A stretch of DNA of 64,000 nt. Origin: Paludibacteraceae bacterium. Its GTDB lineage: Bacteria > Bacillota_I > Bacilli_A > RFN20 > CAG-826. Positions 15,170-38,759 of the stretch are shown piece after piece (positions within the stretch are counted from its first letter, which is position 1; each line of letters begins with the position of its first letter). The translations under genes and the position numbers were made by a program. Below the pieces are notes generated by a model. It saw only the letters and a list, made by a program, of their open reading frames with translations, ran no database searches and was not told the DNA's origin. The stretch lies in assembly GCA_963621535.1 (NCBI GenBank), contig CAVFEQ010000002.1, forward strand, positions 15,362 through 79,361, read 5' to 3'.

Positions 15170-18100
15170 ATGCCACAAGAAGAAAAATTCGACCACCAAC
15201 TTCTGAACTATAAAGATCCTAACGGCGTTCCCTATGCCGTGGGGGCGAACGGCCGCATCAACTTCTCCAAGATCTCCGGGAAGCTCCCTCTCCCCTACTT
15301 GGTTGAAATCCAGACCGATTCCTACCGCTGGTTCTTGAAGCAAGGCCTCGACGAGGCTTTCCGCGAGATTTTCCCGATCTACAGCTTCTCGGGAAAAATC
15401 CAGATCAACTATGTCTCCTCCCGTTTGGAGGAACCTAAATACACCCCGCTTGAATGCAAGGCGGGCGATTTGACCTATTCAAGCAAGATCAAAGTCGCTC
15501 TCCGCCTCGTCCTTGAAAGCGGCGAGATCAAAGACGCCGACGTCTTCATGGGCGAGCTTCCGCTCATGACCGAATCGGGCACCTTCATTGTCAACGGCGC
15601 TGAGCGTGTCATCGTCTCCCAGATCGTCCGCTCCCCCGGTGCTTATTTCCAAGACACCGTCGATAAGGATGGCAAGCACATCTATAACGGCGAGATCATC
15701 CCCGGACACGGCACTTGGCTGCAATTTGAAAGCGACCCCAAAGGCGTTCTCTATGTTCGTATCGACAGGCAGAGAAAAATGCCTGCGACCACCCTTTTCA
15801 AAGCCCTTGGCATCGATAAAGAAAAAGAGCTCATCCAGCTTTTCGGCAAAAGCGACAACATGCTTGCCACCATCAAGAAGGATGACAGCATCAAGTCCAG
15901 CGCCGGCGCTTTGATCGACATCTTCCAGAAACTGAAACCTGGCGAGCCGGTCACCCCCGATGGCTCGGTTGATTTCCTCGTCACCAAATTCTTCGACGAG
16001 AAGAGATACAACCTCGGCCCCGCCGGACGTTTCAAATACGCCCAGAAGCTCGGCCTCTATGAGAGGCTCCCTGGCCGCGTTTTGGCCGAAGACCTCATCG
16101 ACAACCACCCCGAAGGCTGCACCATCGACGTCGATGGCCACATCTTCAACGCCGATGGCGAGCTCGTCGAACCGAAAGTTCTCTTCAAAGAGGGCCATAA
16201 GCTCACCAAAGAAGAAGTCGACTCCCTTAGGGACAGCGAGTTCTTCGAAAGAGGCAACTATGAGAAGAAGATCGCCTCCAACGAGAAGATCGACAAATAC
16301 AGCAACGTCAACGTCATCCACGTCTACGCCCAAGACAAGCAAGGCGAAGAAGTGGTCCCGATGGTCGGCACCGATCTTAACCTCACCCTCAACAGAGTGA
16401 CGATCTCCGACATGGTCGCCTGCTTCTCCTATTTCTGCAACATCCAATCCGGCCTTGGCCAGACCGATGATATCGATCACCTAGGCAACAGACGCATCCG
16501 CTGCGTCGGCGAGCTTCTTCAGGAGCAGTTCCGCAAGGGCCTCTCCAAGATGACCAAGACCGTCCAGCAGAGGATGTCCATCAGCGATTTCGAGTCCATG
16601 ACCCCGCAGTCGCTTGTCAATATCCGCCCGCTTACCTCCTCTGTCCGCGAGTTCTTCTCCTCGAGCCAGCTCTCGCAGTTCATGGATCAGGTCAACCCGC
16701 TTGCCGAGCTCACCAACAAGAGGCGTATTTCCGCCCTTGGTCCTGGCGGTCTCACTCGCGATAGAGCTTCCATGGAAGTCCGCGACGTCCACTACACCCA
16801 TTACGGCCGCATCTGCCCGATCGAATCTCCTGAAGGACAGAACATCGGTCTTATCAACAACCTCGCCTGCTACGCGAAGGTCAACCAATACGGCTTCATC
16901 GAGACCCCCTTCCGTGAGGTTCTCCATATGGATGATGGCCGCTCCTTCGTCGTCGAAGGCGATTTCAAAGGTGACGGCAGCGTTGAATACAAAGCCAAAT
17001 ATCTTTCCGCCGATGCTGAGCGCAACCACTACATCGCCGAATCGAACATCCGCCTTGGCGAAGCCTGCCACTTGAAGGATCTCTATGCTAATGCGGACCA
17101 CGATTGCCTCGTGAAGGAAATCCTCGACGAGAAAGTGGTCGCTAGACACGATGAGGACAACCTCGAAACCGAGAAGGAGAAAGTCGATTACGTCGACGTC
17201 TCCCCCCGTCAGATCGTCTCCATCGCCGCGGCGAGCATTCCTTTCCTTGACCACGATGACGCCACCCGTGCTCTCATGGGCGCGAACATGCAACGTCAGG
17301 CTCTTCCTCTTCTTTCCCCTGAGATCCCTTACGTCGGCACGGGCATGGAGCAAATCATCGCCCGCGACTCCGGTCTTGCGGTTGTCGCCACCAAAGACGG
17401 CGAAGTCGTCTACATGGACAGCAAGAAGATCCAGACCAAGAACGGCAAGGAAGTCGTCACTTACGACCTTCAGAAGTTCGACCGCACCAACAACGGCACC
17501 TGCATGAACCAGACCCCGATTGTCCACGTGGGCGATAAGGTCAAAGCCGGCGACATCATCGCCGATGGCCCCGCCATGAGGCATGGCGAACTCGCCCTCG
17601 GCCACAACGTCCTCGTCGCTTACATGACTTGGCACGGCTACAACTACGAAGACGCCATCATCATGTCTGAGCGCATGGTGAAGGATGACGTCTATACCTC
17701 CATCCACATCGAGAAATACGAAATCGAATGCCGCGACACCAAACTCGGCAACGAAGAGATCACTCGCGACGTGCCTAATGTCGGCGAAGATGCGAAAGCC
17801 TTCCTCGACGAAAGAGGCATCATTATCCCCGGCGCCGAAGTTAAAGAAGGCGACATCCTCGTCGGCAAAATCACCCCGAAAGGCCAGACTGAGCCGACTC
17901 CGGAAGAGAAGCTTCTCATGGCCATCTTCGCCGAGAAAGCCAAAGAAGGAAAAGACAGCTCCCTCCGCGTTCCTCATGGCGGGGCGGGCATCGTCCATGC
18001 GGTTAAGATTTTCTCCCGCAAGAACAAAGATCCCCTTCCCCCGGGCGTAAACACCGTCGTCCGCGTCTATATCGTTCAGAAGAGAAAGATCTCCGAAGGC

Positions 18101-18992: not shown

Positions 18993-21900
18993 ATGTCTGA
19001 TGAAATCAAAATTGAAGATACTGTCGTGACGGAAGAGGAACCTCGCCTCCCTCGTCGCGAGCGTCACGTCGAGTCTTTCGACGTCAACGACCTCGCTTCC
19101 GTCTCCGTCGGCCTTGCTAGCCCGGAGATGATCCGCAACTGGAGCAAAGGCGAAGTCACCAAAGCCGAAACCATCAACTACCGCTCCCAGAAACCGGAGA
19201 TGGGCGGCCTTTTCTGCGAGAAGATCTTCGGCCCGGCCAAAGACTATGAATGCCACTGCGGAAAATACAAAAAGATCCGCCACCAGGGCATCACCTGCGA
19301 GAAGTGCGGCGTCGAAGTCATCTCCAAGGATTGGCGCAGAGAGAGATTCGGCCATATCGAGCTCGTCTCCCCTTGCGCCCACATCTGGTATCTGAAGTCG
19401 ATCCCCTCCAGGATGAGCCTTGTCCTCGACATGACTCCGAAGAACCTCGAGGACATCATCTATTTCGCGGCCCACGTCGTCCTTTATGCCGGCGAGAAGA
19501 AGAAGCCTAATGGCGAGCCTTACCAGACCATCAAGTACAAGGACTACCTCTCCGAGGCCACTGCCCGCGTCGAATTCACCGAGGCCATCAAGGAAATCCT
19601 TGGGACGCTCGATGAGAGCAACAGCGACTACTCGAAGGGCCACGAGCTCATCGAGAAGATGCAGAACCCCCAAGAGACCTTCGACTTCTACACGATCAGC
19701 CAATACATCAACAAATACACCGGCGCCGAATTCGGGGAGGGCGCTGAAGCCATCAAAGAGCTGCTCCACAACGTCAACCTCGAAGAGGAATTCAAGGCCA
19801 TCAACGAGGCCATGAAACATTCTTCGACGCAAAACCGCTTGAAGCTCTCCAAACGCCTTGAGGCCATCAACGCCTTCAAGGATTCCAACCAGAAGCCTGA
19901 ATGGATGATCCTCGATGCGCTTCCGGTCATTCCGCCTGACCTCCGCCCGATGCTTCAGCTCGACGGCGGGCGTTTCGCCGCGAGCGATCTCAATGATCTC
20001 TACCGCCGCGTCATCATCCGCAACAACCGTCTGAAGAAGCTCATCGACATGTCCGCCCCATACGTCATTCTCATGAACGAGAAACGTATGCTTCAGGAAG
20101 CCGTCGATGCGCTTATTGATAACGGCAGACGCACCAAAGCCGTCACCGGTCCTAGCGGCCGTCCTTTGAAGTCCCTTTCTTCGGGATTAAAAGGTAAGCC
20201 TGGACGTTTCCGTCAGAACCTCCTTGGGAAGCGTGTTGATTATTCCGGACGTTCCGTCATCGCGGTCGGGCCGAATCTACGCATGTATCAATGCGGGTTG
20301 CCTAGAGAAATGGCGATCCAGCTCCTCCGTCCGTTCATCGCGGCGATCCTTATTGAAAGGAAGATCGTCTCCGCGCATAAGGCCGCGGACAAATTCATCG
20401 ACCGTTATGATCCGGTGGTCTTCGACATCGTCGAGGAAATCATCTCTGATCACCCGGTGTTGCTTAACCGCGCGCCGACCCTCCACCGCCTCTCGATCCA
20501 GGCCTTCCAGCCTGTCCTCGTCGACGGCAGGGCGATCCGTCTGCATCCGCTCGTCTGCCCTGGCTTCAACGCCGACTTCGACGGTGACCAGATGGCCGTC
20601 CATGTCCCGCTTAGCCGCGCGGCTCAGAAAGAAGCCGTCGAGCTCATGCTGGCTTCCAACAACATCCTCGGTCCGAAAGATGGCAAAGCCATCGTCGTTC
20701 CTAGCCAGGACATGATCCTTGGCAACTTCCACCTCACCACCGAAGAATCCCGCAAGGACTTCCAGGATAGGGCGGATGCTCTGCAAGCGATCGAGGCGAA
20801 AGAAGAGAAACAGAAGACCGGCGTCTATGAGCGCAAAGCCGTCCTTGAGATGGCCGAGAAGAATCTCGAATGGAAAGAGATGGAAGGCAAAATCTTCCAT
20901 AGCGTCTCCGAGGTTCGCCTCGCTTATGAATCCGGCGTGGTTTCGCTGCATAACCGCATCGCGATCCCCGCTAACGCCATCCATAAGGACCTTGGCTCAG
21001 GCATCCCTGAGGATGTGGCCAAAAAGTACCTCATCACCAGCGTAGGCAAGATCATCTTCAACGAAGTCTTCCCCGACGACTTCCCTTATATCAATGACGT
21101 TCCCCATCCGGGCGAATCCCTCGATTACATGGAAGAGTGGTTTGTTAGCCCAGCGGACGTCAAAGAGAAACTAGGCAAGGATTACAAAGAAGATTCTTCC
21201 CTTTCTCCTCTTGCCCAATACATCGATACCCTTCCGCTTAAAAAGCAGATCGGCAAAAAGCAATTAGGACCTCTCATCGACATGGTCTTCAAGAAGTATG
21301 GCGCCGCGAAAACCAGCGCCGTCCTCGACAAGATCAAAGACCAGGGCTTCTACTTCTCCATGATTTCTTCCGTCACCGTCTCCATCGATGACATCAAGGA
21401 AGGAAGCATCGGCAGCGCGAAAGCCAAGCTCGTCGCCGAAGGCAACAAGAAGGTCGACCAGATCGAGAAGTTCTACAAACTCGGCTTCCTCACCGCGAAA
21501 GAACGCCACAAACAGATCGTCGACATTTGGACCAAATGCACCAAAGACGTCGCCGAAGAAGTCAGCAAGGCCATGAAGGAGAACAAGCGCAACCCGCTCG
21601 TCATCATGGCGGATTCCGGCTCCCGTGGCTCGCTTGACAACTTCAAGCAGCTCATCGGCATGAAGGGCCTTGTCGCTAACCCGAAGAACGAGGAAATCGA
21701 AATCCCGATCGTCTCTTCTTACCGCGTCGGCTTAAAGGTCTCCGAATACTTCAACAACACCCACGGCTCCCGTAAAGGCGCCGCGGACACCGCGCTTAAG
21801 ACCGCGGACTCTGGCTACCTCACCCGTCGTCTTGTCGACGTCTCGCAAGATGTCATCGTGCGCGAAGAGGATTGCCACTGCGACCATGGCTTCATGGTTC

Positions 21901-23066
21901 GCGAAATCCGCAACACCGCCCAGGACAAAGTCGTCGAGACCCTCGATGACCGCATCTCCGGCCGTTATGCGATGCACGACATCATCAACCCGCTGACCGG
22001 CGAGATCATCGTCGAAGGCAACACCATGATCAACGACGATGAGGCCAAAGCCATCGTCGCCTGCGGCATCAAGGAAGTGGAGATCCGCACGATCTTCACC
22101 TGCGAGACCAAAGACGGCGTCTGCCAGCATTGCTACGGCAAGAACATGGCGACCGGCAACCTCGTTTCCATTGGCGACGCGGTCGGCATCATGGCCGCCC
22201 AGTCCATCGGTGAACCGGGTACCCAGCTCACCATGCGTGTCTTCCACACCGGCGGTATGGCTGGTAGCGACATCACGACCGGTCTTCCCCGTGTCCAGGA
22301 GCTCGTTGAAGCCAGGAACCCGAAGGGCGAAGCCTGCATCTCCGAGATCTCTGGTACCGTAAAGAGCATCACTCCTGAAGACGAGAAATACAAAGTCGTC
22401 GTCGCCAATGACCTTGAAGAGAAGGAATATGAGACCAACTACGGTGCCCATCTCCGCGTCAAGGTCGGCGACAAGATCGAAAACGGCGGCAAGATCACCG
22501 AAGGCGCCATCAATCCCCGCAAGCTTCTTGAGGTTGGCGGCGTGGAGAAACTCGAGGTCTATATCCTTAAGGAAATCCGCAAAGTCTATCACGCTCAGGG
22601 CATCGGCATCTCCGACAAGCACCTTGAGATCATCATCCGTCAGATGCTCCGCAAAGTAGTCATCGTCGATGGCGGCGACACCAAGATGCTTCCTGGCTCC
22701 CGCGTCGATATGGACCGCTTCACCGAAGAGAACGCCGCTGTGCTTCTTTCTGGAGGCAAACCGGCGATCTGCGAGCCACTCGTCCTTGGTATCACCAAAG
22801 CCGCGCTTGAGACCGACTCCTTCCTCTCCGCCGCTTCCTTCCAGGAAACGACCCGCGTCCTCACCGACGCCGCGGTGAAGAACCGCGTCGACGTCTTGCA
22901 CGGTCTGAAAGAGAATGTCATCACTGGCAAACTCATCCCCGCTGGTACTGGCCTTGCCACTGCTGAAGAAGCCGATGAAGCCGATAGCTTCTCCGTCTCC
23001 GAGGCGATGAAACAGGTCAAAGCCAAATACATCGAAAAGCACGACCGCGCTGATCAAGAAGACTGA
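18993..23066 (+). CDS. rpoC: DNA-directed RNA polymerase subunit beta'
   Basis: 1357-aa ORF with the N-terminal zinc motif ([20 protein letters not shown]) and the catalytic [12 protein letters not shown] motif. Confidence 0.98.
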
Positions 23067-23077
23067 TTCTTCTAGGA

Positions 23078-23108
23078 AGCTCACCTTCGAAAGGGGGTGA
23101 GCTTTTTT
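23078..23108 (+). terminator. Rho-independent terminator after rpoC
   Basis: AGCTCACC pairs perfectly with GGTGAGCT. The stem extends inward to a GAAA tetraloop and is followed by T6. Confidence 0.85.
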
Positions 23109-23113
23109 GCGTC

Positions 23114-23138
23114 AAAAAGCCCGCAAAAACGAAAAATA
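23114..23138. repeat. 25-nt repeat AAAAAGCCCGCAAAAACGAAAAATA (candidate left att-like copy)
   Basis: Matches 29218-29242 at 24 of 25 positions and 38701-38725 at 23 of 25, all in direct orientation. A 16-nt core also occurs inverted at 10988-11003. Confidence 0.85.
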
Positions 23139-23430
23139 TCTCTATTTGGCCGGGGGCGGTATTTGAGAAATTGCATCTTTTTTCCCTTTCACTGTGCGGA
23201 GAAAAGAAGCGCCTTTTGCGGACTCACTTTTTGAAACTTTTTTGTTTTTCCTCCTTCCAATGGCTAGATGAAAAAGCTGGCGGTTTTGGTGAATAGATTT
23301 TTCTGAAAACGAAAAAGCCACCATCGGCACGACAGAGTTATCAATTTTGGTATGGCAATTCGATAGACAAATTAGAGATAAAGTGATATAAAATGTTAAA
23401 CAGTGTTATTTAGGAACAAAGGTGCAAAAT

Positions 23431-23637
23431 ATGAAAATGGATTATGCTAGTGCTTTAAGGCAACTAAGGGCGGAATTGAACCTGTCCCAACATGAATTTG
23501 CTGATTATCTACATGTGTCATTCGTTTCGGTCAACCGCTGGGAAAACGGGAAATTCGAGCCTACAGTCCTCGTGAAGGAAAGGCTTAAGAAATTATTTAA
23601 GCAGTACAACATAGAATTGGAGGTAATGGATCAATGA
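23431..23637 (+). CDS. XRE-family HTH protein (controller-like), first gene of the AT-rich operon
   Basis: Carries an HTH_3 signature (LRQLRAELNLSQHEFADYLHVSFVSVNRWENGKFEP). Its stop overlaps the next start (ATGA). ATG 23431 is preferred over the ORF-track GTG 23422. Confidence 0.8.
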   Translation: MKMDYASALRQLRAELNLSQHEFADYLHVSFVSVNRWENGKFEPTVLVKERLKKLFKQYNIELEVMDQ

Positions 23638-24296
23638 AAGGCCAAGTGAAATCCAAACAAAGAGTCAGAGATCATGGGGAGGTTTTCACCAACGAGCGCG
23701 AGGTGAACGCCATGCTAGATTTAGTAAAGGATGAAACCGAAAACATCGAATCCACGTTTTTGGAACCAGCCTGTGGCGATGGCAACTTTCTTTCAGAGAT
23801 TATTCGTAGAAAACTCGCAATTGTAAAAGAAAGATACGGCAAGAATTTGGAAAATTACGAAAAGTATTCAATCGTTGCCGTCTCCTCGGTATACGGAGTT
23901 GAATTGCTGAGGGATAACGTTATTGCCTGCATCGACAGGCTGTACAATATATGGAACGATGAATACTCGGAGATTGCAAAAAAGCAAATCAACAAAGACG
24001 TCCAGAATGCGTGCAAATATATCCTCAAGAAAAATATATTGTGCGGAGATGCTTTGACCTTGAAGCAAGAAAATGGCGAACCGATCATCTTCGCGGAATG
24101 GAAGCTCGTCAGTGGTTCTATGCTCAAAAGACGTGATTATCGATTGGATCAGATTTTGGAAGCACAAAACGATACTCCGAGCCTATTTTGGTTCGCAGAT
24201 GGTTGGGAATATGATGAAGAGACAAAGGAATATATCCCTGCTCCAATAAAGGAATTCCCTTTAACCGATTTCAGAAGGGTACAAGATTATGAATAA
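23634..24296 (+). CDS. DNA-methylase-like protein with a SAM-binding motif I but no catalytic motif IV
   Basis: 220 aa. It has [17 protein letters not shown], the canonical motif [13 protein letters not shown] (nt 23763-23792), and NILCGDAL with FAEW, which resemble the GNSL and FDW elements of Eco57I/PglX-type enzymes. No NPPY or DPPY is present anywhere. Confidence 0.65.
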
Positions 24297-25842
24297 AGTC
24301 AACTACAATCCGGATGTATTATCTTGCATCGCCAATTTGAGCAACGATGAGGTTTTCACTCCGCCGGAACTCGCAAATGACGTACTTGATTTATTGCCAA
24401 AGGAGATATGGAAAGACAAAAACGCCAAGTTCTTGGATCCTTTTTGCAAATCCGGCGTGTTTCTTAGAGAAATCGCCAAAAGACTATTGGAAGGGTTAAA
24501 AGACGAAATACCAGATCTGCAAGAAAGAATCGATCACATCTTCCATAATCAAATTTATGGCATCGCAATTACCGAACTTACAAGCCTGCTTTCAAGAAGG
24601 AGCGTCTACTGCTCTAAATACCCAAACTGCAAATATTCCATTTCCAAATTCGATGATGTGGATGGCAATATTCGCTTTAAGAGAACAGAGCATACTTGGA
24701 AAGACGGCAAATGCGTTTTTTGCGGAGCTTCGCAAAAAGAATACAAAAGAGACAAAGAACTGGAGACTTATGCCTATGAGTTCATCCATACATTGAAACC
24801 GGAGGAAATATTCAACATGAAATTTGATGTTATTTGCGGCAATCCGCCTTATCAATTAAATGACGGTGGAAACGGGGCGAGTGCCATGCCTATCTATCAA
24901 AAGTTTATTCAACAGTCGATAAAATTAAAACCTAAATACCTGACAATGATAGTTCCTTCACGATGGTTTGCTGGCGGAAGAGGACTAGACTCTTTTAGAG
25001 ATGAAATGTTGCATGATAATAGGCTTCGCAAAATTGTTGACTTTCCAAACGCGGCCGATTGTTTTCCAGGAGTGGAAATTAAAGGTGGAGTATGCTATTT
25101 CTTGTGGAGTAGAGATGAAAGAGGGCTATGCGAAGTTACTACTAAAAACGGGAAAGAAAGCAACACGGCTATTAGGCCTTTGCTTGAAAAAGGATGTTCG
25201 ACTTTCATAAGATACAATCATTCCATTTCCATTTTGCAAAAAATACGTAAGTTAAACGAAAAGACTTTTAATGAACTGATTACCCCTAACGATCCTTTTG
25301 GCTATGACGTTAGAGTTGAAAATAGCTACACCAGAATTAAACCCGATATTAAAAAAGAAAAATTTAATAATTGCGTGAAGATTTATTACTATGGTTGGAA
25401 AAGAGACGGTATAGGGTACATAGATAGAAACACAGTAAGGAAAAATCTCAATTGTATCGAGGATAAGAAAATCTTTATTTCAAGAGCTTATGGTGCGGGT
25501 GAAGTTTTTCCACACCAAATTCTCGGAGTGCCGTTCATTGCCGACAAATGTTCCGTATGTACTGAAACTTATTTAATGATTGGCCCATATAAGGATGATA
25601 ATATTTTGCACAATATTTTGTCTTATATCTCAACTAAATTTTTCAGATTTTTGGTAATGTTAAAGAAAAACACGCAGAGTGCTACGCCTGCTGTGTATGA
25701 ACTAGTCCCTGTTCAAGATTTTTCTAAAACATGGACAGATGAAGGCTTATATAAGAAATACGGACTTACAAATGAAGAAATTTCATTTATTGAGTCTATG
25801 ATCAAACCCATGGATTTAAATAACCCAGCTGAGGAGGAGTGA
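24289..25842 (+). CDS. N6-adenine DNA methyltransferase, Eco57I-like (gamma class)
   Basis: 517 aa. It has [17 protein letters not shown], a degenerate motif [13 protein letters not shown] with no GxG, the catalytic [11 protein letters not shown] (NPPY at nt 24841-24852), an inserted 4-Cys cluster (C-x4-C...C-x2-C, nt 24610-24723) and a long C-terminal TRD-like region. Confidence 0.8.
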
Positions 25843-28712
25843 AAATGGCAAAAGATTTCTTTCCTCAAAAGCCAAACGCAAAACCGATGATATATGCCTA
25901 TGAAGATAGTAATCCGCAATATGCCGGCTATTTGAAAATCGGTTATACAACAATTGGAGTAGAAGAGAGGGTTAGGCAACAATACCCTACTTTGAGACCC
26001 AATGGCACAAGCCCATACAAAATCGTCTTTGCCGAATCTGCCATGTATACCGATGGCGGCAATTTCATGGACCATGACATCCATAAATATCTGGATAAAA
26101 AAGGGTTCAAGAATGTCGGTGGTGAATGGTACAAGTGCAGCGTCGATGACGTAAGGGCGGCTTGGATTGCCGTTCGCTCACATACAAAAAACGAGGAAAA
26201 CAGGACGTTGAATTTTGCCATGCGTCCAGAACAAGCAGAAGCCGTCAACAAGACAATGCTTTACTTCGACTCCGTCTATCAAGACAGAAAACACAACATA
26301 CCCAAATTTCTTTGGAACTGCAAAATGCGGTTCGGCAAGACATTTGCCTCTTATGAACTCGCCAAGAAGATGGGCATGAAGAGAATCTTGATCCTGACTT
26401 TCAAGCCTGCCGTCCAATCTGCTTGGGAAGACGATCTTAAGCAACACGTGGATTTCGAAGGATGGCAGTTCGTTTCTCGTGATGGTTTAAGATATGAAGA
26501 CGCAGATAAAGAAAGACCTATCGTTTGCTTCGGATCGTTTCAAGACTATTTAGGAATCAACAAGGAAACAGGCGGAATCAAGCCTAAAAACGAATGGGTT
26601 CATACCATCAATTGGGATTTGGTCATCTTCGACGAGTATCACTTCGGTGCTTGGAGGGATAACGCCAAAAAGCTATTTGAGAATCCTGATGACGAAAAGG
26701 AAGACGTCGATAACAGCAACCATAATGAATTGCTTGATGAGACGTGGCTTCCTATAACCACCAAATATTATTTGTATTTGTCGGGTACACCATTCAGAGC
26801 CATCAATTCCGGCGAATTCATAGAAGAACAAGTCTATAACTGGACCTATTCCGATGAACAAAGAGCCAAAGAAAACTGGAAAGGACCGGACAATCCATAT
26901 GAAGCTTTGCCACGAATGGTAATGATGACTTATGAGATTCCCGAAGCAATCAGAAGAGTTGCTATAAATGGCGAATTCAATGAGTTCGACCTCAATATGT
27001 TTTTCGAAGCGGAAGGCAAAGGCAAAGATGCACGCTTTATTTTCGAAAACGAAGTTCAGAATTGGTTGGATTTAATTCATGGTGCTTATCTTGATACTTC
27101 TATTGATGAACTGAAAGTAGGCACGAAGCGTGGGCAATCATATCTTCCTTTCAAGGAAACTGCCTTATTAAATGTTTTGAGTCATACATTATGGTTTTTG
27201 CCTAATGTGGCTTCGTGCGATGCGATGGAGAACTTGCTTAAACAAAAGCAGAACAATTTTTATCATACATACAAAATTAATAACTGCTCTGGCACGAAAG
27301 CCGGCGTCGGCCTTGATGCGTTATATCCGGTTCTCGAATCAATGGACGATCCTCTTGAATCAAAGACGATCACGCTTACATGTGGCAAGTTATGCACTGG
27401 CGTTACCGTCAAACCATGGACCGGCATATTTATGCTTCGAAACCTCTCCACCCCAGAGACTTATTTCCAATCGGCATTCAGAGTTCAGTCTCCTTGGGAG
27501 GTAAAAACCGAGACTGGAAAAAAAGAAATCATCAAGAAAGAATGCTATGTTTTCGATTTTGCTTTGGACAGGGCTTTGAAGCAAATCGCTGATTATGCGA
27601 CCAAGCTCGACATAAACGAGCCAAACCCAGAAAAGAAAGTTCGAGATTTCATCGATTTCTTACCAGTTCTAGCCTACAAAGACGGTGCGATGAAAGAAAT
27701 CGACGCAGGAGAAATCCTGGACATCGCTATGAGCGGAACTACGGCTTCTCTCCTTGCTCGTAGATGGGAGTCGGCATTGCTCGTTAACGTCGATAATGCG
27801 ACGCTGCAACGCCTCCTAAATAGTGAGCGAGCCATGGAAGTTTTGATGAAAATCGAGGGTTTCAGGAGCCTTAACAAAGACATCACCACAATCATCGCGA
27901 AATCCGAAGATGTGAAGAAGAAAAAGAAAGAACTCGAGAACCCTACGCCAAAAGAAAAAAAGCAGATCTCCGAAGAGGAAAAGGAGTTCAAAAGCAAGAG
28001 AAAAGAGATTCAGGAAAAGCTCATCAAATTCGCCACCCGCGTCCCCGTGTTCATGTATTTGACCGATTACAGGGAATATTCTCTCGAAGATGTCATCACG
28101 AAGCTTGAACCCACACTCTTCAAGAAAGTCACCGGCCTAGACGTCGATGACTTCAATTTGCTTGTTTCTCTTGGGATTTTCAACAAGCCTTTGATGAATG
28201 ATGCAATCTACAAGTTCAAGAGATACGAGGATTCAAGCCTCGAATATACAGGCATCAATAGACACGAAGGCGAAAAAGTGGGCTTGTTCGATACCGTTCT
28301 TACCAACGACGAATATAAACACTTATATGAACTTCAGCAAAAATCTCTAATTGGCAAGAAAACAGCTTATAAGCTCGAAGACTTGGCCAAAGAAAAGAAA
28401 GGCTCTGGATTTGATAAAAACGGGCATGCAGTATCTTCTCAACAGCCAACGAAATCGAATGAATCGGCCTTTGTTTCAAAACCAAGTTCGCCTTCAAACC
28501 AAAAAACAATTGTTACCAAGAAAGAAATTATCGTTGTCGATAAATCTAAAATTGTTGTTGGTGCCAAGGTTTCCCACAAAGCGTTTGGCATTGGATTTAT
28601 TACAGAGTTAAAGGATGAACTTGTCGTTGTTAAATTTGACGAATACCCAGCTGCTAAAAACTTCCAGAATCCACAAGGGTTCGAAAACGGATTCTTAAAG
28701 TTGGAGGAATAA
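25839..28712 (+). CDS. T5orf172/GIY-YIG-like domain fused to an SF2 (ResIII-type) helicase with a Tudor-like C-terminus
   Basis: 957 aa. Residues about 17-112 read [19 protein letters not shown]...DHDIHKYL...GGEWYKC, a T5orf172-like pattern. Helicase motifs are motif I MRFGKT (nt 26334-26342), motif II DEYH (nt 26631-26642), SGTP and [12 protein letters not shown]-rich linker and a C-terminal [14 protein letters not shown]...VVVKF (PcrA/UvrD CTD-like) follow. Confidence 0.75.
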
Positions 28713-28840: not shown

Positions 28841-29047
28841 ATGGAAGAAATCATCAGCGATGCCTTGGCCACCGGCAAAAGGGTGACCACCGTCTACAGC
28901 CCGGAGCTGAAGTTGGCCCTGTTCCGGGAGTATGTGTTCGACGGCCAGGAAGCTTATGACGCGATAATCTCCTGCCTTGGCGCCGAACGCAAAACTGTAT
29001 TTACTCTGCAAACTAGCGGGCCTAAGTCTACGCAAAGTCTACTTTAA
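28841..29047 (+). pseudogene. Possible N-terminal fragment of an IS3-family (IS150-like) OrfA
   Basis: A 68-aa ORF after AAAAGGAGAAA. The stretch VYSPELKLALFREYVFDGQEAY resembles the YSxEFKLxxVxEYLxGxxSY start of IS150-type OrfA. The reading frame runs into the 260-bp repeat and stops there. Confidence 0.3.
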
Positions 29048-29258
29048 AGTCTACTTTTAGTCTACTTTTAGGGTCTTTTCTTCTACTAGATAAATGGAGG
29101 CTGCAATATTCTTCCTAGTCTTTCTCTCCGGTAGCAGGCAAAGGAGAAAGTGAGTCTATATCACGGATGTGGCCTCTATAGCGATCATCCTGATTCTGGG
29201 TTGCGTTCTATGGAGCGAAAAAGGCCGCAAAAACGAAAAATAACCCTGTTTTGCAGGG
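28999..29258. repeat. 260-bp repeat element, copy 1
   Basis: Matches 38482-38741 at 259 of 260 positions. It contains four AGTCTAC heptamers at 29035, 29046, 29058 and 29069, internal hairpins, the 25-nt motif and a terminal hairpin. Confidence 0.95.
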
Positions 29259-29267
29259 TTATTTTTT
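29236..29267. terminator. Long A/T-rich hairpin at the end of repeat copy 1 (bidirectional terminator)
   Basis: AAAAATAACCCTG pairs with CAGGGTTATTTTT around a TTTTG loop, with T or A runs on both sides. It lies downstream of the convergent PAP2 gene. Confidence 0.6.
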
Positions 29268-38383: not shown

Positions 38384-38481
38384 CGTGAATATTGTTGTTC
38401 TTTGTTTGCATGGCCCTGGCCTTTCCGATGCTTGCCTTAAAGTCGGCGATGGTTGGCCGTCCGCGGCGAAAGCAAAACTCC

Positions 38482-38741
38482 ATTTACTCTGCAAACTAGC
38501 GGGCCTAAGTCTACGCAAAGTCTACTTTAAAGTCTACTTTTAGTCTACTTTTAGGGTCTTTTCTTCTACTAGATAAATGGAGGCTGCAATATTCTTCCTA
38601 GTCTTTCTCTCCGGTAGCAGGCAAAGGAGAAAGTGAGTCTATATCACGGATGTGGCCTCTATAGCGATCATCCTGATTCTGGGTTGCGTTCTATGGAGCG
38701 AAAAAGGCCGCAAAAAAGAAAAATAACCCTGTTTTGCAGGG
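38482..38741. repeat. 260-bp repeat element, copy 2
   Basis: Matches 28999-29258 at 259 of 260 positions. The single difference is A at 38717 where copy 1 has C at 29034+200 (position 29234). Weaker similarity extends about 25 nt upstream of both copies. Confidence 0.95.
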
Positions 38742-38759
38742 CTATTAATCTTGTTTTGG

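Follow-up and report, generated by a model that had tools for sequence, protein, structure and literature searches.

A DrdVI-type cassette whose putative restriction subunit ends in a clade-specific PcrA/UvrD-like Tudor domain

What is the role of a protein that begins with a nuclease-like domain, continues with a helicase motor and ends in a small barrel of the kind found at the C-termini of DNA-repair helicases? The question is raised by one gene, hereafter R, at 25839-28712 on the plus strand of a 64,000-nucleotide (nt) stretch of DNA (the window; positions 15,362 to 79,361 of contig CAVFEQ010000002.1, assembly GCA_963621535.1) from a Paludibacteraceae bacterium. R belongs to a cassette of four genes, the others encoding an HTH_3 protein and two methylase-like proteins, M1 and M2. 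We conclude that R probably serves as the restriction subunit in a DrdVI-type, ATP-dependent cassette gained by horizontal transfer, and that in one clade this subunit carries a Tudor domain that most likely acts as a tether to a host protein. The conclusion builds on the domain identities of R, the conservation of its residues, the orthology of its cassette to that of DrdVI, the restriction of the tail to a single clade and the PcrA surface residues that the tail retains.

Domain composition of R

An earlier note, made from the sequence alone, had described R as an unusual nuclease-helicase composed of an N-terminal T5orf172 domain, a ResIII-type superfamily 2 (SF2) core, a K/E-rich linker and a PcrA-like Tudor C-terminus, and every motif string that it quoted is present in the translation of 25839-28712. 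The parts of R, given in amino acid (aa) positions, are as follows.

25839..28712, plus strand: R, the putative nuclease-motor subunit (open reading frame, ORF; 52% identity over aa 5-821 to the 851-aa helicase of plasmid pDrdVI)
25887..26177, plus strand: T5orf172/GIY-YIG-clan domain, predicted nuclease, aa 17-113 of R (Pfam, conservation, Foldseek)
26214..27563, plus strand: SF2 DExH motor core, aa 126-575 of R (ResIII, PADLOC, motifs, Foldseek)
27564..28328, plus strand: conserved all-helical region, aa 576-830 of R, including K/E-rich helices at ~678-732 (occupancy, DrdVI alignment, model)
28341..28529, plus strand: hypervariable low-complexity linker, aa ~835-897 of R (no column conservation; predicted local distance difference test score, pLDDT, <50)
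28551..28709, plus strand: PcrA/UvrD-type Tudor-like domain, aa 905-957 of R (invariant residues, profile, fold)

The N-terminal assignment holds up well. With aa 1-132 cut out, the Pfam profile T5orf172 (PF10544) matches over positions 2-96 of its 101, at E 6.8e-10 and with 39.8 bits where the cut-off is 20, and MUG113 matches at E 8.8e-8; the T5orf172 match is absent from the Pfam scan of full-length R and is seen only with the N-terminus cut out. Most homologues of R carry a precomputed match to PF10544 or PF13455. Of the N-terminal strings quoted in the note, GYLKIGYTT lies at aa 30-38, ERVRQQ at 43-48, DHDIHKYL at 78-85 and GGEWYKC at 94-100. Among 61 relatives sharing 29-60% identity, Y19 and K33 never vary and G35, R44, D78 and E96 each reach a conservation of 90% or more; a set of 83 sequences agrees. 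Y19, R44 and E96 occupy what we take to be the positions of the strand 1 tyrosine, the helix 1 arginine and the metal-binding glutamate of the GIY-YIG superfamily. In the AlphaFold model the pLDDT across the domain is 71-86, and Foldseek against the viral models of BFVD returns T5 Orf172-domain and BRO proteins at probability 1.00 (ranks 8, 25, 35 and 40). From its clan membership and the conservation of these residues, aa 17-113 is the predicted nuclease of R.

No other nuclease domain was detected in the operon. The earlier note had recognized neither a PD-(D/E)xK nor an HNH motif, and profile scans of R, M1, M2 and the HTH protein likewise found neither. A hidden nuclease of either type within R was considered and rejected: Pfam, NCBIfam and PADLOC returned nothing for the whole protein and Pfam returned nothing for the cut-out central and C-terminal pieces, and one placed after the motor is also disfavoured by the model, in which the post-motor region is all-helical.

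The motor core carries the motifs expected of an SF2 helicase, namely RPEQ, KMRFGKT (motif I; MRFGKT at aa 163-168), DEYH (motif II; 265-268), SGTP (motif III; 315-318), TCGKLxTGVTV (motif V region) and QxAFRVQSP (motif VI; QSAFRVQSP in R, 544-552). Among the 61 relatives G166, K167, D265, E266, H268, G316, T317, G521, Q544 and R548 are invariant, and S315, P318 and T512 are at least 90% conserved. R matches positions 151-801 of the PADLOC model PDLC03626 at E 6e-34, and it scores 22.1 bits against ResIII, just under the cut-off of 22.5, where relatives reach 25-61 bits. A full-length AlphaFold model, built with 27 close homologues, has a pLDDT of 54.7 and is usable only for the two terminal domains; the PDB matches that Foldseek finds for this low-confidence model are SF2 helicases. 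The SF2 core proposed in the note is upheld by motifs and fold. As the PDB searches gave no informative match, the motor is not assignable to any subfamily of solved structure: a single-sequence search (E<=1) found no solved relative of R, and two family profiles gave only marginal results, with RapA, HsdR and XPB matched weakly at motif II and no Type ISP chain among them. The best Foldseek matches of the full-length model (maa1d020bd959) were the helicase subunit of the poxvirus early transcription factor (7amv_I, 7aof_I) and a 691-aa uncharacterised Synechococcus phage protein (E 8e-10). In this model there are hints of a link between the motor family of R and viral D6/D11-like helicases.

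Between motor and tail, the K/E-rich stretch (aa 690-732) that the note had called a linker proves to be something else. At aa ~678-732 the model predicts, with moderate confidence, long helices that include a run of invariant residues, within a post-motor region (aa 650-790) that is predicted helical at a pLDDT of ~65-80. Occupancy of the helical region among diverse relatives is 87-98% to aa ~800-825, alignments run to ~800-830, and the K/E-rich helices are kept in the tail-less R protein of Deinococcus DrdVI. No Pfam family matched the helical region at aa 576-830. The K/E-rich stretch is a structured, conserved part of the family, common to tail-less relatives, and the true linker lies downstream of it, at aa ~835-897, where no columns are conserved, length and sequence vary among close homologues and the model is disordered (pLDDT <50).

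The Tudor-like tail and its candidate partners

The last ~53 residues of R form the part that sets it apart from most of its family. Within the clade that carries them, H913, K914, F916, G917, G919, F933, F942, P945, G951 and F952 are invariant; the Tudor string quoted in the note spans aa 908-933. Against PF21196 (PcrA_UvrD_tudor) the tail of R scores 17.4-18.6 bits, under the cut-off of 23.9, and aligns to profile positions 1-21 only. For calibration, the host's own PcrA scores 19 bits against the same profile (tail 17.8) and is itself under the cut-off. The profile is matched at E<1 by 17 of the 21 clade members (best 7.2e-5); eight members match the RapA Tudor domain and three the CarD/TRCF RID. 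When all PDB sequences are searched with a profile of the tail, the C-terminal domains of UvrD and PcrA take the first four places.

Structure prediction points the same way. A domain-only model of the tail has five strands and a pLDDT of 87.3, and its first two Foldseek matches in the PDB, both at probability 1.00, are the C-terminal domain of Thermus thermophilus UvrD (7egt_B; template modelling score, TM, 0.80, root-mean-square deviation 2.1 A) and the PcrA Tudor domain (5dma; TM 0.74, 2.2 A). Both are also recovered from the full-length model. The matches that follow are 6yi2, RapA, Mfd, CarD, UvrD1 and KOW/Agenet barrels. At the level of the predicted structure, we regard aa 905-957 as confirmed to be a five-strand Tudor barrel whose closest solved relatives are the UvrD/PcrA C-terminal domains, with a sequence link that is weak but specific; the C-terminus named in the note is thereby borne out by fold and, below threshold, by sequence. 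Like the PcrA/UvrD Tudor domains (PF21196; PDB 5DMA, 6YI2, 7EGS, 7EGT and 9DQS), the tail forms the very end of a helicase, follows a disordered linker, carries the signature G-x-x-V-x-H-x-x-F/W-G-x-G in a five-strand barrel (TM 0.74-0.80) and keeps a surface histidine, aromatic residue, lysine and hydrophobic residue. Unlike them, it is attached to an SF2 restriction motor rather than to a superfamily 1 repair helicase, it has phenylalanine in place of the tryptophan and of the leucine, and its sequence score lies under the Pfam cut-off. One close homologue (P0008, 1119 aa, 72% identity) has ~160 extra residues past the Tudor domain (VWYVCYGSNLCLERF), in which Pfam finds nothing at E<=0.001.

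We mapped the tail onto Geobacillus stearothermophilus PcrA by motif and strand register, using a PcrA sequence that reproduces the residue numbers of the published mutants. H913, F916, K940 and F942 of R correspond to H681, W684, K712 and L714 of PcrA, where K712 equals K727 of Bacillus subtilis PcrA. The spacing from F933 to K940 equals that from F705 to K712 in PcrA, and in the model these residues lie on strands 3 and 4. Within the clade H913, F916 and F942 do not vary, and the conservation of K940 is 90% or higher. Sanders et al. mutated H681, W684, K712 and L714, and point mutations in the C-terminal domain greatly reduced RNA polymerase binding (PMC5397179); Urrutia-Irazabal et al. found K727 critical for the interaction of PcrA with RNA polymerase (PMC8318588). 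Since the four residues are conserved, the tail would keep what PcrA needs for partner binding.

On the partner side, the published motif is [VIL]-D-x-x-T-G-E-[VIL]-[VILT], carried on a hairpin in the SI1 region of RpoB and in UvrB (PMC8318588). A six-frame ORF scan of the host genome yields a single match to the strict motif, in UvrB. Judged from sequence and model, the tail most likely docks R on a host protein with a TGE hairpin, which would be RNA polymerase beta and/or UvrB. The earlier note had proposed that the enzyme is recruited to transcription complexes rather than acting as a free translocase. Recruitment to transcription complexes is a hypothesis in favour of which stand the four conserved RNA polymerase-binding residues; against it, the PcrA Tudor domain binds UvrB via the same motif and the strict motif occurs in this host only in UvrB and not in RpoB. 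The second half of the proposal falls away: a docked R would still translocate, and a tethered and a free translocase are not alternatives. RpoC (18993-23066) contains INPLTGEII at ~aa 998-1006, one residue (N for D) off the published helicase interaction motif. Docking of the tail on a TGE-like motif within the cassette itself was considered and rejected: M1 and M2 have none, and INSGEFIE in R is a core feature of aligned, mostly tail-less relatives.

A stronger version, in which R is a restriction enzyme physically coupled to transcription or repair through docking of its Tudor tail on RNA polymerase beta (or beta') or UvrB, is one that we entertain only tentatively and rate as somewhat unlikely. 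If true, restriction may be loaded preferentially on, or coordinated with, transcribed DNA such as that of an incoming phage or plasmid; alternatively, the contact may resolve collisions of a translocating R with RNA polymerase. The literature that we searched, with combinations of T5orf172, helicase and methylase and of Tudor and restriction, describes no Tudor-tailed or tethered restriction enzyme. The clade-specific tail is the distinctive part of R, and it allows a wiring of restriction to transcription or nucleotide-excision repair to be tested.

The cassette, its relatives and a proposed mechanism

R is encoded together with three upstream genes on the same strand.

23422..23637, plus strand: HTH_3 protein, 71 aa, probably a C-protein-like controller of the cassette (Pfam HTH_3, E 2.3e-12)
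23634..24296, plus strand: M1, 220 aa, methylase-like without NPPY, orthologue of the first DrdVI methylase gene (38% identity to the 212-aa pDrdVI protein)
24289..25842, plus strand: M2, 517 aa, Eco57I-family N6-adenine methyltransferase (GNPPY) with a presumed C-terminal target-recognition part (Pfam Eco57I, E 1.9e-39)

By sequence comparison, this four-gene cassette (HTH/M1/M2/R) is of the DrdVI type. M1, M2 and R have their counterparts in three adjacent genes of pDrdVI, with order and strand preserved: M1 shares 38% identity over its full length with a 212-aa 'DNA methyltransferase', M2 shares 48% with a 539-aa methylase, and R shares 52% over aa 5-821 with the 851-aa helicase. The M1-2.DrdVI methylases have been cloned and place N6-methyladenine (m6A) at GCAGCC (Fomenkov et al., PMC6430315). 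M1 gives weak matches to the MmeI_Mtase and MTase_II profiles, and small M1-equivalent genes lie upstream in four other loci (L001, L003, L009 and L010). M2 matches positions 862-1359 of PDLC03626, the PADLOC model of a fused REase_MTase_IIG protein, and R matches the adjacent part of the same model.

The two methylase-like proteins have complementary motifs: in M1, motif I is intact (EPACGDGNF) and NPPY is absent, and in M2, GNPPY is present and motif I (DPFCKSGVF) lacks GxG. The Deinococcus pair shows the same pattern (EPACGSGNF vs DPCTKSGVF/GNPPY), under the joint New England Biolabs (NEB) name 'M1-2.DrdVI'. These complementary motifs in both pairs, with the joint listing, suggest that M1 and M2 act together. 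The split trio recurs in an integrative element of Bacillota, on a Mycolicibacterium plasmid (Actinomycetota) and on the Deinococcota plasmid pDrdVI. In the integrative element (L001; ENA ERZ21549425, 5801-10889) the homologous cassette lies near genes for serine recombinases, TnpV and Toprim/AAA_25 proteins; its M2 is called at only 374 aa and is followed by a 390-nt gap before R, and may be truncated or frameshifted.

The architecture is not unusual, contrary to what the earlier note had said. A T5orf172-SF2 helicase next to an Eco57I methylase defines a very large family (more than 4000 representative clusters) that is annotated by NCBI and PADLOC and that would supply the R subunits of DrdVI-type cassettes; REBASE has named one instance, DrdVI. 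The class comprises under-explored, putative ATP-dependent restriction enzymes with a GIY-YIG-clan nuclease; in the literature searched on the family, cleavage by a T5orf172-SF2 member is not described.

Several known systems resemble the cassette in part. DrdVI itself (Deinococcus wulumuqiensis NEB 479, pDrdVI, CP031164) shares the order M1, M2, T5orf172-SF2 helicase and the conserved K/E-rich helices, but its helicase, at 851 aa, ends exactly where the linker and Tudor tail begin in R. The DnmA(YeeA)-YeeB-YeeC system of B. subtilis and its Vibrio crassostreae homologues (PMC9973331), likened to R here by their description, combine a non-palindromic m6A methylase, an SF2 helicase and T5orf172 on a horizontally acquired island; in contrast to R, helicase and T5orf172 are separate proteins, the methylase is a single large MmeI-like protein, no Tudor tail is reported, and the copy in B. 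subtilis is functionally silent. Fused T5orf172-helicase-Eco57I proteins (REase_MTase_IIG, PDLC03626; for example WP_096710548 of Enterococcus faecium pEfmO_03) are ~32% identical to R in nuclease and motor over aa 26-648, have a homologous methylase and, on Enterococcus plasmids, a small methylase-like gene upstream. They differ in being single polypeptides with the methylase C-terminal to the motor, whereas the cassette of R has the methylase as a separate upstream gene and R ends in a helical domain and Tudor tail.

Classical ATP-dependent classes fit less well. Type ISP enzymes such as LlaGI and LlaBIII consist of one polypeptide each, whose N-terminal nuclease is an Mrr-type PD-(D/E)xK domain; the cassette would share with them the logic of a nuclease, an SF2 translocase and a gamma-class m6A methylase with target-recognition domain acting on asymmetric sites, a logic that is expected here rather than shown. 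We reject membership of this type: the subunits are split, the nuclease is T5orf172, an M1 is added, no PD-(D/E)xK profile matches and no Type ISP chain was found when solved chains were searched with the single sequence and the two family profiles. Type III Res subunits have a C-terminal PD-(D/E)xK nuclease and act with a single Mod methylase. Membership of Type III (Res/Mod) is rejected as well, the nuclease of R being N-terminal and of the GIY-YIG clan, its C-terminus helical with a Tudor domain, and the methylase-like genes two in number.

We infer the nuclease and translocase activities of R, restriction itself and all binding partners of the tail, and propose the following scheme. M1 and M2 would methylate adenine in a short asymmetric site, M2 contributing the NPPY motif and target recognition. 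A site left unmethylated would engage R, with M1/M2 as the site-reading module that recruits or licenses it. The SF2 DExH motor of R would hydrolyse ATP to translocate on, or remodel, double-stranded DNA, and the N-terminal T5orf172 domain would cut the DNA, a scheme that resembles those of Type ISP, Type III and Type I enzymes with another nuclease fold and split subunits. In the tailed clade only, the ~60-aa disordered linker and the Tudor domain would form a flexible tether to a host protein with a TGE hairpin.

Several points weigh against this reading. The nuclease role of T5orf172 is drawn from clan and residues and not from an assay of the family; motif VI (FRVQS) retains a single arginine; and the full-length model (pLDDT 54.7) is too poor to resolve the motor architecture. 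DrdVI is documented for methylation only, with no cleavage reported (PMC6430315), and DnmA-YeeB-YeeC of B. subtilis gave no restriction of phage or plasmid (PMC9973331). As to the tail, it stays below the Pfam cut-off, small Tudor/SH3-like barrels recur widely (KOW, Agenet and TnsB are also in its Foldseek list), and the host RpoB is without the strict motif, having a degenerate IFNADGELV at ~aa 324-332. The tail might be a generic Tudor/SH3-like barrel that binds DNA, or that docks R on M1/M2 in place of the covalent link of the fused enzymes. The fused relatives, with their methylase C-terminal to the motor, make an assembly element at the C-terminus plausible, and the KOW, Agenet and TnsB barrels appear at similar E-values; yet most split relatives, including DrdVI, lack the tail, so that assembly needs none, M1 and M2 have no [TS]GE hairpin motif, the top sequence and fold matches are specifically UvrD/PcrA C-terminal domains, and the partner-binding residues of PcrA are kept. 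On balance we think a generic barrel unlikely.

Two further alternatives concern the cassette as a whole. T5orf172 might be a DNA-binding or regulatory module in a system that works by some means other than cleavage, such as BREX-like exclusion or the displacement of DNA-bound proteins. This we consider very unlikely given that Y19, R44 and E96 are conserved at 90-100%, at what are presumably the catalytic positions of the superfamily, and that NCBI names a relative 'GIY-YIG nuclease family protein'. On its side are the UniProt label 'T5 Orf172 DNA-binding domain-containing', the lack of any other detectable nuclease domain in the operon and the description of the domain as largely uncharacterised (PMC9973331). 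The least probable of the alternatives, to our mind, is that the cassette, like DnmA-YeeB-YeeC, only methylates or is a decayed relic, with an R that has ceased to restrict and a purely epigenetic regulatory role. The related B. subtilis cluster indeed shows neither restriction nor phage defence (PMC9973331), but none of the four ORFs here is disrupted and their translation is coupled, the catalytic-type and ATPase residues do not vary, thousands of full-length homologues keep the architecture, and deletion of the V. crassostreae dnmA/yeeB homologues renders cells more phage-sensitive (cited in PMC9973331).

Distribution and genomic setting

At E<=1e-3 the R family comprises 4061 representative clusters, most of the full-length proteins having 770-870 aa and ending near query position 825. 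Among diverse relatives the occupancy beyond aa ~826, in the tail region, is at most 15%. As the Tudor signature is found only in representatives at least 57% identical to R, the tail is, on these alignments, an acquisition of a single clade. A word-based homologue search with the tail alone returned only the closest relatives and was uninformative on other architectures. Metagenomic assemblies contain the clade in abundance, with 5993 member sequences in one cluster at 90% identity alone, and it is also found on mobile elements.

Within its own lineage the cassette is sparse: a homologue of R is present in only 2 of 41 related genomes. The cassette has a guanine-plus-cytosine content of 40.6% against 48.8% for the genome, lies directly downstream of rpoC, and is flanked by copies of a ~61-nt repeat.

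23094..23154, no strand assigned: left copy of the ~61-nt flanking repeat (75% identity to the right copy)
29198..29258, no strand assigned: right copy of the ~61-nt flanking repeat (repeat comparison)

Its sparse occurrence, low guanine-plus-cytosine content, position after rpoC and flanking repeats together fit horizontal acquisition. A third copy of the ~61-nt repeat lies at 38681-38741, and a 284-nt repeat, 98% identical between its copies (28980-29263 and 38463-38746), brackets a downstream sugar-utilisation block. The repeats suggest tandem insertion of islands right after rpoC.

The genes of the cassette overlap start-to-stop, the HTH stop with the M1 start and M2 with R via GTG/TGA, and these overlaps indicate translational coupling. 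The ORF at 25839-28712 is open without stops and gives 957 aa from its GTG; R probably starts at the ATG at 25845, two codons further on (955 aa), because a ribosome-binding site (GAGGAGGAG) lies 5 nt upstream of this ATG and an identical database protein is 955 aa long. In a promoter and terminator scan, promoter-like sites were less frequent than in shuffled sequence and the plus strand past R showed no convincing terminator; the scan was uninformative.

The genome also encodes a second, fused paralogue, on contig C70 (locus L007, 377-1342 and 1339-5088). Its ORF, at least 1250 aa long and cut off by the end of the contig, combines ResIII with Eco57I methylase domains and shares 34% identity with R over aa 44-741; a 321-aa ORF without a Pfam match precedes it.

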